Assembly (NCBI GenBank): GCA_052386995.1
Contig: JBQTJP010000035.1
Coordinates: 1 to 27,137 of the forward strand
Direction of reading: 5' to 3'
From: Armatimonadota bacterium
GTDB lineage: Bacteria > Sysuimicrobiota > Sysuimicrobiia > Sysuimicrobiales > Humicultoraceae
DNA: 27,137 bases
Position numbers: made by a program. Within the stretch, counting starts at the first letter, position 1. Every line of letters starts with the position of its first letter. This document shows, one piece after another, positions 24,001 to 27,000 of this stretch.

Positions 24001-27000
24001 CGATGACATCGTCCACGTAGCCCCGGGCCGCGGCGACGTAGGGATTTGCAAACTGCCCGCGGTAGTCGGCGACCAGCTCGCGGCGGCGCGCGTCGGGGTT
24101 GGGAGCATCGGCCAGCTCCTTGCGGAAGATGATGTCGATGGCGCCTTCCGGGCCCATCACCGCGATCTCGGCCGTCGGCCAGGCCAGGTTGAGGTCGCCG
24201 CGGATGTGCTTGCTCGCCATCACGTCGTATGCGCCGCCGTAGGCCTTTCGGGTGATCACCGTCAGCTTCGGCACGGTCGCCTCACAGTACGCATACAGCA
24301 ACTTCGCGCCGTGCCGGATGATCCCGCCGTGCTCCTGCGCCACGCCGGGGAGAAACCCCGGCACGTCCACGAACGTTAGCAGCGGGATGTTGAACGCGTC
24401 GCAGAATCGGACGAACCGCGCGCCCTTCACCGAGGCATCGATGTCGAGCACGCCGGCGAGGACGGCGGGTTGCTGCGCGAGCACCCCGACCGGTCGGCCG
24501 TGGAGCCGCGCGAACCCGACGATCAGGTTGCGGGCGAACGCCGCGTGGACCTCGAGGAACTCCGCGTCGTCAACCACGCGCGAGATGATCTCGTGCATGT
24601 CGTACGGCTTCGCAGGATCCTCCGGCACCAGCGCATCGAGGGCGGGGTCGGCGCGCGAGGGCTCATCGGCCGGCGTTCGACGGGGTGGATCTTCGAGGTT
24701 GTTTGACGGAAGAAACCCGATCAGCCGGCGAATGAGGGCCAGGCAGCCCTCGTCGTCGTCGACGACGAAGTGGGCGATGCCGCTGCGGCCGGCATGAACG
24801 TCGGCACCTCCAAGATCCTCGAACGATACCTCCTCACGCGTCACCGCCTTGACGACTTGGGGGCCGGTGACGAACATGTACGCGGTGCCCCGCACCATGA
24901 TCGTGAAATCGGTGATCGCCGGCGAGTACACGGCGCCCCCGGCGCACGGGCCCATGATCGCGGAGATCTGCGGCACGACGCCGCTGGCCAGCGTGTTGCG
25001 CAGAAAGATGTCGGCGTAGCCGCCCAGGCTGACGACGCCTTCCTGAATGCGCGCGCCGCCGGAGTCGTTGAGGCCGATGACCGGCGTCCCCGTGCGCATC
25101 GCGAGGTCTTGGATTTTACAGATCTTCTCGGCATGTCCTTCGCCGAGCGATCCCCCGAGGACCGTAAAGTCCTGTGAGAACACGTGCACCGGCCGGCCGT
25201 CGATCGTGCCGTGACCGGTCACGACGCCGTCGGCGGGCGCCTCCGCCCGGTCCATGCCGAAATCGCGGCTGCGCGGTATGACAAACGGATCGAGCTCTAC
25301 GAACGATCCCGGATCGAGGAGGATGTCGAGCCGTTCGCGCGCCGTCAGCTTGCCCGCCTGGTGCTGACGGTCGATGCGCTCCTCGCCGCCCATCGCCAAC
25401 AGCCGCTCGCGGCGGCGGCGCAGGTCGTCCAGGCGATCGGGCGGCACGAGCTCTAGGACGGCGCCCCGGACTCCGGCGGCAGTGGGCCGTACGGACGGAT
25501 GGCGATGATCCCGTGTTTGAAGAGAAGTTCCTGCGTTCCGTTGTTTTCGATCAGGAGGCTGTAGGTGCCGAAATCCTTGACGATCGCCGACGGGATCTCG
25601 TACCCATCGCGGCAGCGGATGTACACGGGCGTGGCAGCGCCGACGAGTCTGCGGTAGAAGGCATCTTCGAGCGACGGCCGCGGCGGGGCCTTCGTCCCTG
25701 TCGGCCCGTCCGTTCGGATCTCTTCGCGCATCACGGTTGCACCTCCCTGACGCTCCGGTCGAATCTCACTCATGTCGTGAATGACGTCCTCAGCGGCCGC
25801 GCCCACCGCATGGGCTTGCCAGGACTCGCCCCGCAGTGGCTCGTGCCCGGGACTTCTTGACGGTTCTTCCGTCGCCGGAGGCTCGTCCTGCGCGGCACCC
25901 GTGGGCGGAGCTTCCTCCGGGCTCGCCGGGGACCCAGCGCCCGCCTCGGCGCGGATGAGCCGCTCATAGTGCGCGCGCAAACCTTCAAACTGCTGGCGGC
26001 GATCCAACCGCACCTTGCCTGCACCTTCAATCCGGCGCGGCGGCTTTTGCGCGGCATCCATGACCGCGCCGACGACCGCTTCGGCCTCACTGGACGTCAC
26101 CGCCTCCGCACCCACGTGCAGCAGGCTCGTCCGTTCCGAAGTCAGGGTGAGGGCGGCCAGCGCCACGGCAGCGCCGGCGAATTGCATCACCGACAGGGCC
26201 TCCAGCGACGGCCGGTAGCCGCTCCGTTCGATGAGCGGACGCAGCGCCTCGACGGCCGCCAGGGCCACGGTGCGCAGGCGTTGCGACTGTCCGGGCGGCG
26301 CCTGCGCCGTCCCGGTCAAGGTCTTCTGGGCGCCTTCGCGCTCATACCGCAGCTCGACGATGACGTTGGTCATCGTCTCCGTCATCGTTTCTTCGAGCCG
26401 GACGAGCTGAGAGGCCGGGATGCGCTCGGTGTCGGGCGTAGGCTGCAGGTGGGCGATCTGAACGCGCCAGCCATCAACGGGCAGGTTGAACTGACTCATC
26501 AGCGCGGACGTAATGGCACGCCTGATCCCGCCGTCATCGCGCGCCGACTCGGTCGTGACATAGATGCGCTCGATGTCGCCGGCCTCATTCGCCACGACGC
26601 GCACCGCCGCGACGGCATCGAGCCGTTCGAGGAAGGCTTCGATCTCTTCTGCGAAAACTTCCCGGGGCACCGGCATTGCTCCGAGTGGGATGATTGAATG
26701 AGCCCCTCTTCTGCGGCCCGCGGAAGGTCTCCTTCCCTTACACATGACTGGTGACGCGATTCATTCAGCACGCTAATCTACTTGTGATGCGCGGGACCAC
26801 GCGCAGGTTCGGCTCCCGAAAGGAGACGGCCAATGAACGCACGCGCAGTCGCGACGTGGGTAGACCGATATGTCCGGGCCTGGAAAACGAACGATCCTGA
26901 CGATATCAAAGAGTTGTTTACCGAGAATGCGAGGTATTACACTGCCCCACACCGCAGGCCGTGGAAGGGACGCAAGCAGATCGTTCAGGGATGGTTAGGC

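Follow-up and report, generated by a model that had tools for sequence, protein, structure and literature searches.

The window analysed here is a stretch of 27,137 nucleotides from the genome of an uncultured soil and hot-spring bacterium of the phylum Sysuimicrobiota. On its minus strand it carries a gene for a protein that we call giant Hfq, followed by a carboxyltransferase gene and a pcc/mcm cluster (17752..23249). The features of the locus, all on the minus strand, are as follows.

26678..26681, minus strand: GGAG 7 nt ahead of the GTG, likely the ribosome-binding site for the long form (read from the sequence)
25453..26670, minus strand: giant-Hfq open reading frame, 405 aa, GTG start; N-terminus MPREVF as in homologues
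26446..26670, minus strand: domain 1 (residues 1-75), alpha-beta-beta-alpha-beta; model pLDDT 84-94, net charge -5
26026..26445, minus strand: domain 2 (residues 76-215), beta-beta-beta-alpha twice, resembling the LeuA allosteric domain (VIA-align, hhalign); a paralogous domain occurs in the same genome
25936..26025, minus strand: conserved basic helix (residues 216-245); D223, R224, R232, Y235 and R240 in at least 90%, median charge +4
25774..25935, minus strand: disordered linker rich in A, P and E (residues 246-299); pLDDT below 50, median charge -8
25738..25767, minus strand: peptide motif E-I-R-P-E-x-x-G-G-A (residues 302-311); I303, R304, P305, E306 and G309 invariant in 35 homologues
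25740..25746, minus strand: GGAGGTG at codons 309-311, resembling a Shine-Dalgarno element and fully complementary to the 16S tail CACCTCC
25729..25734, minus strand: in-frame GTG (V313) and ATG (M314) at 7 and 10 nt past GGAGG; an Sm-only product of 92/93 aa may start here
25486..25677, minus strand: Hfq Sm domain (residues 332-395), from Pfam, PDB sequences, Foldseek, VIA-align and residue alignment
23900..25447, minus strand: acyl-CoA carboxylase carboxyltransferase (PccB-like), Carboxyl_trans E 2.8e-202; starts 5 nt past the hfq stop codon
21297-23249, minus strand: biotin carboxylase (pcc/mcm cluster)
19148-21469, minus strand: methylmalonyl-CoA mutase (pcc/mcm cluster)
18705-19202, minus strand: NUDIX gene (pcc/mcm cluster)
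17752-18696, minus strand: MeaB gene (pcc/mcm cluster)

An Rfam scan of the whole window gave no matches. Between positions 23000 and 27137 no promoter-like sites were found, and the four terminator-like sites (1.8 expected) were not usefully placed.

Searches with the full protein found Hfq at its C-terminus. Pfam Hfq matched residues 336-394 (E 3.6e-5) at 23.7 bits, so that giant Hfq, unlike canonical Hfq, scores under the cut-off of 27 bits; the NCBIfam Hfq model (TIGR02383) gave E 7.7e-5 and 22.5 bits against a cut-off of 61.7. Taken by itself, the 92-residue C-terminal part reached 27.5 bits with Pfam Hfq (cut-off 27). A search of PDB sequences returned only Hfq chains, the best being B. 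subtilis Hfq 3ahu (E 4e-4). The preliminary description had called this the sole Hfq gene of the genome, and a six-frame Pfam Hfq search of the assembly (3.47 Mb, 93.2% complete) agreed, with a single real match (27.7 bits) in this open reading frame; a search with Pfam LSM gave no matches. One further six-frame match, of 13 bits, belonged to an HtrA-type protease. An AlphaFold model of the full protein, built from 35 homologues, had a pLDDT of 78.4 with 215 residues at or above 90, and together with the fold searches it confirmed the proposed architecture, in which an Sm fold is preceded by two folded domains and a disordered linker.

Residues 332-395 are, in the model, a true Hfq Sm fold, with the N-terminal helix and the five-stranded bent sheet in place. 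Against Hfq chains, this part gave Foldseek TMt values of 0.84-0.92 (rmsd 1.1-1.4 Å on 65-66 columns) and VIA-align Z scores of 12.0-11.0 (rmsd 1.0-1.9 Å, 60-66 residues aligned), as expected from the Hfq fold first described at this C-terminus. The reported invariance of F384, K385 and H386 also held, in 35 of 35 aligned homologues. Y370 is likewise invariant, and F384, K385, H386 and Y370 correspond to Y55, K56, H57 and F42 of E. coli Hfq. The Sm2 motif [YF]-K-H-[AG]-I is present, as F384-K385-H386 is followed by G387 and I388, and D9, P21, V22, G29 and I59 of the E. coli protein are retained. Giant Hfq therefore shares fold (rmsd 1.0-1.4 Å at Z 12.0-11.0), Sm2 motif and an aromatic residue at position 42 with canonical Hfq (E. 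coli, B. subtilis, C. crescentus and T. maritima; PF17209), and its proximal uridine pocket appears largely kept.

In other respects giant Hfq departs from the canonical proteins. Its N-terminus is longer by 330 residues, which include two folded domains, and several characteristic Hfq positions are changed. Q8, a proximal-site residue of Hfq, is absent, with E335 (invariant in 35 homologues) at its place. The rim arginine patch R16/R17/R19, which is typical of strong annealers though not universal, is aligned to V343, G344 and A346, with R340 and R341 lying one helical turn ahead of these positions. The distal-face residues Y25, I30 and K31 are aligned to R352, Y357 and E358. Given these changes and the lack of net positive charge on the Sm domain (median net charge 0), its general chaperone activity may be weak or altered. 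To our knowledge, the extensions described for Hfq are C-terminal and disordered, and known variants differ only in their disordered C-terminal tails. Sm-like barrels joined to folded domains occur elsewhere, for example in archaeal SmAP3 (1m5q), which matches the Sm part of giant Hfq at Z 8.3, and in RimP (1ib8), a weak Foldseek match (E 5.5e-3); SmAP3, RimP and the eukaryotic LSm fusions have other partner domains, in another order.

The two N-terminal domains (the N-module) gave a pLDDT of 91.0 when folded by themselves, with the same structural matches as in the full model. Domain 2 (residues 76-211) aligned with the regulatory domain of M. tuberculosis LeuA (3fig_A) at Z 9.4 over 111 residues (rmsd 4.0), or at Z 9.2 over 113 residues when the N-module was folded alone, and with LiCMS (3f6g_B) at Z 8.7, covering 109 residues of a 115-residue chain. 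Foldseek gave E values of 6e-5 to 2e-4 between the full model and MtLeuA, and sequence identity to the matched structures was 10-16%. Profile-profile comparison by hhalign with LeuA_dimer (PF08502) gave 68% for the giant's own module and 95% (E 9.4e-9, 127 columns) for the stand-alone family described below. The homology of domain 2 to the LeuA allosteric domain that had been put forward is thus upheld at Z 9.2-9.4, as is the likeness of residues 1-75 to the C-terminal domains of CDF and ANL proteins (VIA-align Z 9.2-7.5 in the full model; Z 9.1-8.4 with the N-module folded alone, the CDF matches at 9.0-8.4, and EscJ at 7.3). A likeness of the N-module to tandem dsRBDs (Foldseek E 5e-4 to 1e-3) was rejected, with an rmsd of 12-47 Å.

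Domain 2 shares with the LeuA/CimA domain (PF08502; 3fig, 3f6g) its doubled beta-beta-beta-alpha fold across the domain and a remote profile-profile similarity, and the C-terminal helix is alike, with EAxVxATLDAxNRRL in the stand-alone family and EASxxAYLDAxNKL in LeuA. In contrast to LeuA and CimA, an extra alpha-beta-beta-alpha-beta domain precedes it, and Pfam found no HMGL-like domain, the Claisen-condensing TIM barrel, in the open reading frame. The PF08502 profile matched neither giant Hfq nor its own-genome paralogues at E <=10; the true LeuA was the only protein of the genome that it matched at that threshold. The loop G-[DN]-G-P-V-[DN]-A, whose conservation we judged on 30 aligned LeuA/CimA domains of the phylum and which we take to be the leucine-binding site of LeuA, is not kept. 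Its place is taken by G120-T-A-Q-A-P-P-G...R131-L-R133, with an 8-residue insertion. Because of this loss a branched-chain amino acid, one of the two ligands that had been suggested, has lost ground and is unlikely.

Much of what can be said about the N-module comes from its stand-alone relatives. A profile of the module (A2) found 2323 cluster representatives at E <=1e-3 (884 at <=1e-10), and stand-alone forms of 197-323 aa span profile positions 8-212. In the reverse direction, a stand-alone profile (A3) matched the giant-Hfq open reading frame with 131 bits (E 4.9e-38) over positions 4-205 of 214. The N-module is therefore a diverged paralogue of a large, unnamed stand-alone family of ~215 aa, which is itself a remote LeuA_dimer relative. 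Pfam and NCBIfam assigned the stand-alone members to no family apart from two sub-threshold matches to PF08502 (E 2.5e-4 and 3.7e-3), and the stand-alone profile found only PrgK (4oyc) among PDB sequences, at a non-significant E of 1.1. When short versions of the N-module were looked for by a word-based search, only 2 fragments turned up. Giant and stand-alone proteins have the two domains in common, ordered alike and covered by the profile over their full length. The genome studied here also carries a paralogue, and G120, A122, R133, A138, A142, E157, G187 and A202 are conserved in both forms. They differ in domain 1, where the giant lacks the family's E-x-H-x-L, PKQxVRD and DHKK motifs and has R35-x-Y37-x-T39, R50-R51 and G67-W68-R69 in their place. 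With the gained R35, Y37, R50, W68 and R69, and fused to helix, linker and Hfq, the giant's copies form one long-branched clan beside the stand-alone family (stem 1.21).

The genomic context of this family is one of signalling. The HD-GYP neighbour noted earlier for the stand-alone form was recovered as a MASE9/HD_5 gene downstream in 19 of 22 loci. In 7 of the 22 the upstream gene encodes the ribosome hibernation factor HPF, and the own-genome paralogue of the N-module directly follows HPF. Loci of the family have the order HPF, stand-alone gene, small ORF, MASE9-HD-GYP and DUF5317. In addition, of 19 ORFs scanned, 8 are GGDEF proteins that end in domain 2, one of them in this genome. HD-GYP neighbourhood and GGDEF fusions give contextual support only to the other ligand that had been suggested, c-di-GMP. 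Against it, all 60 genomes searched (at least 90% complete) have GGDEF genes, including those of family f5, which lacks the N-module, so the phyletic pattern gives the link no support; furthermore, a LeuA-like domain at the end of a GGDEF protein could be a plain dimeriser.

Between the N-module and the Sm domain, the giant form has a basic helix that is absent from the stand-alone family and a linker whose length varies widely between homologues. Median net charges are -5 for domain 1, -2 for domain 2, -8 for the linker and 0 for the Sm domain. Complex prediction between residues 1-245 and 296-405 scored 0.00 in both runs, for which controls were not folded, so that the score speaks in neither direction on an intramolecular contact. 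In E. coli Hfq an acidic C-terminal tail autoregulates RNA binding (PMC5606850). The arrangement is comparable, since giant Hfq likewise has an acidic disordered segment on an Sm core that could compete with RNA; its segment is, however, N-terminal and far longer, and ends in folded domains, and competition would be by analogy.

A second property of the gene lies just before the Sm domain, where the Shine-Dalgarno-like GGAGGTG is complementary to the genome's own 16S tail, which ends GGATCACCTCCTT. Codon 309 is GGA in 30 of 43 genes, although this codon makes up 16.5% of gene-wide use, and codon 310 is GGT in 34 of 44, against 10% gene-wide. When 102 amino-acid-conserved columns were ranked by divergence from usual codon usage, columns 309 and 310, together with 304, took ranks 1-3. 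Codons 303, 304, 306 and 311 also favour A/T endings, as do codons 4-8 after the true start, and an in-frame ATG, GTG or TTG follows 4-10 nt past the element in 26 of the 30 genes that bear it. Identity among these genes spans only 34-98%, with a median of 48%, and their other invariant four-fold sites are variable. Because GGAGG is common in these GC-rich genes, the case for an internal start is carried solely by this conservation at synonymous sites. GGAGG occurs 223 times in 51.8 kb of giant-hfq genes, 34 times elsewhere with an in-frame start 3-11 nt on, and in the window GGAGGTG occurs 6 times (4.2 expected).

On the codon pattern, we consider it about an even call that in some two thirds of the family, among them this gene, translation also begins internally, at a conserved ribosome-binding site and start, and gives a free Hfq of 92 aa. 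The genome would then not depend on the giant form only, as its single Hfq gene had suggested, since the same gene may also give a plain Hfq. ClpB, IF2 and CheA provide precedents for internal initiation that gives one gene two proteoforms, with a likewise in-frame Shine-Dalgarno and start before a self-sufficient C-terminal part; we know of no such case for any Hfq. That GGAGGTG is no start signal, and reflects an inter-domain pause, another constraint or a relic in a gene that makes the long protein only, is a reading we hold at somewhat under even odds. Such a reading would account for the 14 of 44 genes that keep the peptide motif without the element, for the 34 comparable sites elsewhere in these genes and for an ordinary local RNA fold (z -0.29). 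Gene callers do start Hfq calls of 91-93 aa at this point in other genomes; most of these lie on contigs of 0.5-3.6 kb, one on a contig of 10 kb, and truncation may account for them. The long-protein-only reading is harder to reconcile with the retention of the rare codons GGA and GGT in 30 and 34, respectively, of 44 genes that have diverged deeply, first of 102 columns, with the A/T endings typical of a true start, and with the start codons that follow in 26 of 30 genes.

Within the phylum, Pfam Hfq matched in 69 of 94 genomes, nearly all in frames of at least 365 aa, and a plain Hfq was found in one only; the giant form does indeed replace plain Hfq in most of the phylum, as proposed. The fusion has a single origin (quick tree, SH-aLRT 100). 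Families f1-f4 and f6 have it, whereas f5 and f7 lack both the fusion and the stand-alone family. In 29 of 37 loci pccB follows the gene at a distance of 5-42 nt, with the mutase gene directly next in 6 more, in contrast to the stand-alone loci with their HD-GYP gene; unlike canonical hfq, the gene has no miaA or hflX neighbour. The downstream propionyl-CoA pathway degrades carbon from isoleucine and valine. The wider block comprises ligA, a gerMN-like gene, hfq, pcc, mcm and ksgA, and since it mixes unrelated housekeeping genes the synteny may be inherited order. Methylmalonyl-CoA mutase is kept without giant Hfq in 4 of 5 family f5 genomes tested.

We hypothesize that giant Hfq is a modular Hfq, in which an Sm ring is tethered by an acidic linker to paired, LeuA-type N-modules that are tuned by a signal, and we put the probability of this reading at roughly 45%. 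The Sm domain would form the usual ring and bind U-rich RNA at its largely kept proximal pocket. The acidic disordered linker would tether this ring to the acidic two-domain N-module, and N-modules would pair as LeuA-type regulatory domains do. Paired modules and acidic tether could then restrict or adjust how RNA reaches the ring, in which the usual rim arginine patch is missing. The signal would be either a small ligand at a conserved loop and helix site (G120, A122, R131, R133 and E157) or a partner protein, and by changing the state of the paired modules it would change RNA access. If used, the internal start would supply free 92-aa Hfq, so that rings could mix regulated and plain subunits. 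Of the earlier proposal of a ligand-gated RNA chaperone, architecture, LeuA homology, HD-GYP neighbour and distribution all stand, the branched-chain amino acid does not stand well, and ligand gating as such is plausible. A specific version, in which the long form has a receptor module in common with HD-GYP and GGDEF circuits and binds c-di-GMP or a kindred nucleotide, the short form is plain and the signal, through mixed rings, sets what share of the cell's Hfq RNA can reach, we consider improbable in that full form.

The other explanations differ in what the N-module or the Sm domain is thought to do. The N-module may respond to no small ligand and be a constitutive dimerisation, scaffold or partner-docking module that pairs neighbouring subunits, bridges two rings or recruits a ribosome- or degradosome-linked partner, which would make the protein no more than an Hfq extended by an assembly domain. 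We rate this as rather unlikely. In its favour, the LeuA domain is a dimerisation domain, as the Pfam name of PF08502 states; the domain forms the C-terminal end of GGDEF cyclases, enzymes that have to dimerise and in which a CBS pair is already the sensor; the layout of domain 1 is that of ring-building or dimerising domains (EscJ, CDF); and the stand-alone gene lies beside HPF in this genome and in about a third of the loci (7/22). A purely structural role does not readily explain why a polar site (R131, R133 and E157, with G120 and G187) is common to giant and stand-alone forms at the place of the LeuA ligand loop, or why the HD-GYP neighbour, which points to signalling, is near-obligate. 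Gating by leucine, isoleucine or valine, by which RNA control would be coupled to amino-acid supply or to the propionyl-CoA pathway, is very improbable in our view. Its appeal is that the best structural matches are leucine-bound 3fig_A and isoleucine-bound 3f6g_B, that hhalign ties the family to LeuA_dimer and that hfq lies 5 nt upstream of pccB, within the pcc/mcm cluster. The replacement loop is, however, longer and has other conserved residues (G120, A122, R131 and R133), PF08502 has no match and identity to the structures is low. Moreover, the family's conserved partners are HD-GYP, GGDEF and HPF genes and not amino-acid genes, and family f5 keeps the mutase without giant hfq.

It is also unlikely, in our estimate, that the Sm domain is no general sRNA chaperone and serves instead as an Sm ring that binds proteins, a role reported for cyanobacterial Hfq, or as a dedicated regulator of its own pcc/mcm operon. 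The glutamate in place of Q8, the lost rim arginines, the changed distal residues and the net charge of 0 are compatible with such a role, as are the tight spacing to pccB and the fact that Synechocystis Hfq (3hfo) matches as well as the others (Z 11.2). The invariant F-K-H-G-I with the aromatic residue at 42 is nonetheless hard to explain without a uridine pocket. For an operon-specific role, the adjacency to pccB may again reflect gene order inherited within a block of unrelated genes, and family f5 runs the pathway without giant hfq.

What is new here is the N-module family, the loss of the LeuA loop, the Sm residue losses, the internal Shine-Dalgarno and start, and the adjacency to pccB. 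Hfq is a central hub of small-RNA regulation, and in a phylum abundant in soils and hot springs the sole Hfq carries two folded, regulatory-looking N-terminal domains. Should that module sense a signal, giant Hfq would be the first case in which a metabolite or second messenger sets how far Hfq is accessible to RNA, and if the two-proteoform reading with c-di-GMP were true, nucleotide signalling would be wired directly to control at the sRNA level, in a phylum without another Hfq. The conserved internal start, if used, would be a simple case of two Hfq proteoforms from one gene. The stand-alone family, with its 2323 representatives and its association with HD-GYP, GGDEF and HPF, is uncharacterised and a candidate new part of c-di-GMP signalling. 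Overall, giant Hfq may connect a signal in the cell with gene regulation at the level of RNA.

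The giant hfq gene and the element ahead of it lie in the window as follows.
25453-26670, minus strand: open frame of 405 codons with a GTG start
7 nt upstream of that GTG, minus strand: GGAG, read from the sequence

Translated from this GTG, the protein begins M-P-R-E-V-F, as do its homologues. Hfq was the sole family matched by the ORF in Pfam and NCBIfam; the Pfam match on residues 336-394 (E 3.6e-5) reached 23.7 bits with the full protein, below the 27-bit cut-off, and the NCBIfam Hfq models gave E 7.7e-5 and weaker. Among PDB sequences matched at E up to 10, 27 of 28 were Hfq chains, headed by B. 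subtilis Hfq (3ahu, E 4e-4). The gene had been described as the only Hfq-like one in its genome, and this held when the entire assembly (326 contigs, 3.47 Mb in all, 93.2% complete) was searched in six frames: there was one real Hfq match (27.7 bits, inside the giant ORF), and Pfam LSM had no matches. A second six-frame match (13 bits) fell inside an HtrA-type protease and so was not taken as Hfq. With an E limit of 1e-3, a word-based search revealed 129 related proteins; the best 120 are 285-473 aa long and 39-100% identical. They are mostly unnamed, but JGI labels many “sRNA-binding regulator protein Hfq” and NCBI has “RNA chaperone Hfq” for three and “hypothetical” for the rest. The Sm part has thus already been noticed by annotation pipelines, unlike the architecture of the protein.

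An AlphaFold model built with 35 homologues had a pLDDT of 78.4, with both folded parts above 90. Its C-terminal part matched Hfq chains in Foldseek (TMt 0.84-0.92, rmsd 1.1-1.4 A) and Hfq structures in VIA-align (Z 12.0-11.0), reproducing the numbers on which the preliminary description had based a C-terminal Sm fold. The N-terminal folds it had proposed were likewise recovered: the model matched M. tuberculosis LeuA in Foldseek (E 6e-5 to 2e-4) and, in VIA-align, leucine-bound MtLeuA (3fig_A, Z 9.4 on residues 76-211) and the LiCMS regulatory domain (3f6g_B, Z 8.7), with CDF and ANL C-terminal domains on residues 1-75 (Z 9.2-7.5). When the N-module was modelled alone, the pLDDT was 91.0 and the structural matches were unchanged. 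In these models the architecture observation stands.

The giant form is characteristic of the phylum. We found 51 giant hfq loci in one-genome-per-species contigs, all from CSP1-3/Sysuimicrobiota-type MAGs, one of them labelled Bacillota. That this form replaces plain Hfq in most Sysuimicrobiota, as had been suggested, was supported: Pfam Hfq matched 69 of 94 phylum genomes, nearly always in open frames of at least 365 aa, and a single plain Hfq was seen. That plain Hfq, an 81-aa frame of 103.9 bits at G055:C156:1965-2150, occurs in a genome that also encodes the giant form, and may be a contaminant or have arrived by transfer. The more sensitive N-module probe was positive in 81 of 94 genomes, including every genome of families f1-f4 and f6. 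In family f5, Pfam Hfq and the probe each matched 0 of 12 genomes (72-100% complete), and the probe also missed the one f7 genome. (Both tallies include two unpublished genomes, G025 and G017; no result depends on these two alone.) In a quick tree search, 24 giant N-modules formed one clan (SH-aLRT 100, stem 1.21) separate from 44 rows of stand-alone proteins, which would fit a single fusion event.

Giant hfq ends 5 nt before a PccB-type carboxyltransferase gene, which is followed in the window by DinB, biotin carboxylase, methylmalonyl-CoA mutase, NUDIX and MeaB. Directly after hfq in 49 related loci came pccB (38), the mutase (6) or the contig end (5). Of 37 loci, 29 have a predicted distance of between -2 and 42 nt from the hfq stop to the pccB start, and the other 8 have 84-147 nt. 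Co-transcription of hfq and pccB is therefore likely, judging from gene layout. A dedicated functional tie to the pcc/mcm genes may or may not exist: the block consists of mixed housekeeping genes, and family f5 keeps the mutase without giant hfq in four of five genomes. Many relatives carry ligA and a GerMN-domain gene upstream of hfq, on the hfq strand. A ~170-aa GerMN (“Germane”) gene lies directly upstream of hfq at L007:9401-9910, L025:9429-9929, L029:9364-9879 and L051:6958-7524, preceded in three of these four loci by NAD-dependent DNA ligase; further upstream are a PALP-family (threonine-synthase-like) gene and ThiS, and L025 additionally has a GHMP kinase gene there. In the window itself a divergent SnoaL-like gene (26833-27120) lies upstream of hfq, and beyond it the contig stops. 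The longest ORFs of the mutase (19148-21469) and biotin carboxylase (21297-23249) overlap by 173 nt (21297-21469); their real starts are probably further in, since Pfam places the start of the mutase domain as late as residue 253 and that of the biotin-carboxylase N domain at residue 162.

The giant gene also contains a candidate internal start. After the N-module comes a conserved basic helix (residues 216-245, charge +4), then a disordered, length-variable, A/P/E-rich linker (median charge -8) and last an invariant peptide, E-I-R-P-E-x-x-G-G-A. The DNA beneath this peptide reads ATT CGA CCG GAG CGT CAG GGA GGT GCA ACC GTG ATG and holds the following element.
25740-25746, minus strand: GGAGGTG, a perfect complement to the 16S tail of the same genome, ...GGATCACCTCCTT

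From the GGAGG core, the GTG is at 7 nt and the ATG at 10 nt. We compared 44 full-length giant hfq genes: GGA stands at codon 309 in 30 of 43 (gene-wide use 16.5%) and GGT at codon 310 in 34 of 44 (gene-wide use 10%). Of 102 columns with a conserved amino acid, the three that depart most from the genes' own codon use are 310, 309 and 304, in that order, and 311, 303 and 306 are within the top 13; the sole other cluster of A/T-ending codons is at codons 4-8, just after the true start. Among the 30 genes bearing the Shine-Dalgarno (SD) sequence, identity is 34-98% (median 48%). The third base is free to vary at their other invariant four-fold sites (pairwise third-base identity 0.24-0.66), whereas column 310, which had no part in defining the group, reaches 0.81. 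An in-frame ATG, GTG or TTG follows 4-10 nt past GGAGG in 26 of the 30. Gene calls of 91-93 aa named “Hfq” elsewhere begin exactly at this position, although they may be truncations, and the 92-aa product from the window alone scores 27.5 bits with Pfam Hfq, above the cut-off. GGAGG is nevertheless common in giant hfq genes (223 in 51.8 kb, with 34 at other sites close to an in-frame start), and the window holds 6 copies of GGAGGTG where 4.2 would be expected. In addition, 14 of the 44 genes use GGC instead; they form a divergent clade, yet keep the peptide. We put at about even odds that the internal start is used, which would give a second, short Hfq product.

Another GGAGGTG (17096-17102, minus strand) lies 18 nt inside the longest ORF of a G5/3D-domain gene (16071-17120), which probably starts slightly beyond its first GTG. 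Group I introns are rare in bacterial 16S genes, and the 3' end of the 16S gene of this genome is interrupted by one (G000:C92:1-400; L203:1-395): the exon ...GAAGTCGTAAC stops near 127, the intron spans 115-343 (Rfam, 62.1 bits, cut-off 50, E 5.5e-15), and the exon resumes around 354 with AAGGTAGCCGTACGGGAACGTGCGGCTGGATCACCTCCTT.

Alignment of E. coli Hfq (from NC_000913.3) with eight members of the giant family gave the following correspondence, in which the rim, distal and pocket roles are those that we assume for the E. coli residues.
E. coli D9, P21, V22, G29, K56, H57 and I59: kept
E. coli F42: Y370, invariant
E. coli Y55: F384
E. coli Q8: E335, invariant
E. coli D40: G368
E. coli R16, R17 and R19 (rim): V343, G344 and A346
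E. coli Y25, I30 and K31 (distal): R352, Y357 and E358

R340 and R341 lie one helical turn ahead of the usual rim patch, and the median net charge of the Sm domain is 0. The uridine pocket is probably kept, and we read the rim and distal face as rebuilt.

A profile of the N-module (residues 1-215) from 24 loci, run against 1.84 billion representatives, had 2323 matches with E no higher than 1e-3, 884 of them no higher than 1e-10. Giant forms and their fragments filled ranks 1-18, followed from rank 19 by stand-alone proteins of 197-323 aa covering profile positions 8-212 (E 1e-33 to 4e-23). The fifteen of these that were scanned matched no Pfam or NCBIfam family except for two sub-threshold LeuA_dimer matches (E 2.5e-4, 21.4 bits, cut-off 24.9; and E 3.7e-3), and Atlas names the nearest clusters “hypothetical”, one being auto-named after the LeuA allosteric domain. 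Compared with 30 LeuA/CimA regulatory domains from the phylum, the stand-alone family gave a profile-profile probability of 95% (E 9.4e-9, 127 columns spanning the whole domain) while the module of the giant itself gave 68% (E 6.2e-6). The final helices resemble each other (EAxVxATLDAxNRRL in the stand-alone family, EASxxAYLDAxNKL in LeuA). As PF08502 matched true LeuA alone in this genome, and neither the giant Hfq nor its paralogues, domain 2 (residues 76-215) is, on these profiles, a remote homologue outside that family.

The stand-alone proteins combine an alpha-beta-beta-alpha-beta domain with the LeuA-allosteric-like one and carry the motifs E-x-H-x-L, PKQxVRD, DHKKIS and ATLDAxNRRL. In domain 1 (residues 1-75), E-x-H-x-L, PKQxVRD and DHKK are replaced in the giant form by R35-x-Y37-x-T39, R50-R51 and G67-W68-R69, and the stand-alone family lacks the basic helix. 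The giant N-module is acidic (median charge -5 in domain 1, -2 in domain 2). Residues common to both (G120, A122, R133, A136, A138, A142, E157, G187, A198, A202, L204 and A206), with the giant's invariant R131, mark a predicted conserved loop/helix site at the position of LeuA's Gly-rich loop.

Besides giant hfq, the genome has two further copies of the module.
G000:C6:12947-13540 (L055:1471-2127), minus strand: stand-alone paralogue of 218 aa, a profile match
G000:C170:14-1573 (L056; P0270): CBS-CBS-GGDEF protein of 519 aa with domain 2 alone at its C-terminus

The paralogue immediately follows the long-form ribosome hibernation factor HPF, and next come a PIN gene and secA; the GGDEF protein has an AGDEF motif and lacks the RxxD inhibitory site, and has relatives in G010, G036, G038, G047 and G054. 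We scanned 19 ORFs with domain 2 from five other phylum genomes (one ORF cut by a contig end was excluded).
CBS-CBS-GGDEF followed by the domain: 5 of 19
GGDEF followed by the domain: 3 of 19
weak Roadblock match: 2 of 19
single-domain proteins of 138-183 aa: 5 of 19
no other Pfam family: 4 of 19

Domain 2 was C-terminal in all 14 longer ORFs, and two single-domain genes (G036:C162, G054:C40) closely follow a GGDEF match encoded on the same strand. The stand-alone profile found 523 relatives in metagenomes, where the family sits in loci of many phyla ordered HPF, stand-alone gene, HD-GYP and DUF5317. Neighbors were called in 36 loci and 79 ORFs scanned from 22 (the other 14 are AT-rich near-copies with the same layout). 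The conserved HD-GYP neighbor reported earlier was present, as a MASE9/HD_5 protein downstream on the same strand, in 19 of 22 loci; MASE9/HD_5 is of HD-GYP type according to 10.1101/2021.11.05.467447. DUF5317 then followed in 7 of 22, and HPF was upstream in 7 of 22. A raiA RNA motif (170-175 bits) was observed upstream of that HPF (L098:4000-4203, L153:643-848). The spacer between the stand-alone gene and the HD-GYP gene is 220-290 nt and conserved across 12 aligned loci (L087-L166; e.g., L093:5646-5879, L098:5613-5905). It has no Rfam match. In it an AGCG-repeat motif (AGCGnA...GAGCGGAGCGG) is followed by GGAGG and a very short ORF (~25-30 codons), whose hydrophobic product has an L-A-G-G-A motif, ends near a Trp and is probably an unannotated micro membrane protein.

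The MASE9-HD-GYP neighbors, GGDEF fusions and HPF neighbors place the module's family in the company of c-di-GMP turnover enzymes and of ribosome hibernation. The link is weakened on two counts: GGDEF genes are present in 60 of 60 phylum genomes, f5 among them although it lacks the module, and a C-terminal LeuA-like domain might merely dimerise its cyclase. We favor, at a probability of about 0.45, a signal-tuned Hfq. Such company speaks for a signal, and the dimerising alternative extends to the giant protein as well; that its N-module is a constitutive dimerising or docking module is a tentative second reading. It is rather unlikely that the Sm domain, with its rebuilt rim and distal face and probably intact pocket, has ceased to be a general chaperone. 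Gating by a branched-chain amino acid is very improbable: leucine-bound LeuA is a structural match, but the G-D-G-P-V-D-A loop of LeuA aligns to a longer, different loop in the stand-alone and giant modules.

A full-text literature search brought up no account of an Hfq with folded N-terminal domains, nor any of the stand-alone ~215-aa family, and the main text of the paper naming the phylum (PMC11604079) has no occurrence of Hfq. The earlier view that the architecture is new, with the Sm part already annotated, therefore holds. Overall, that the Sm part is Hfq was known; what is new is the architecture, the module's family and a possible second product, and the stand-alone family is a candidate for a new component of c-di-GMP signalling or of ribosome hibernation.
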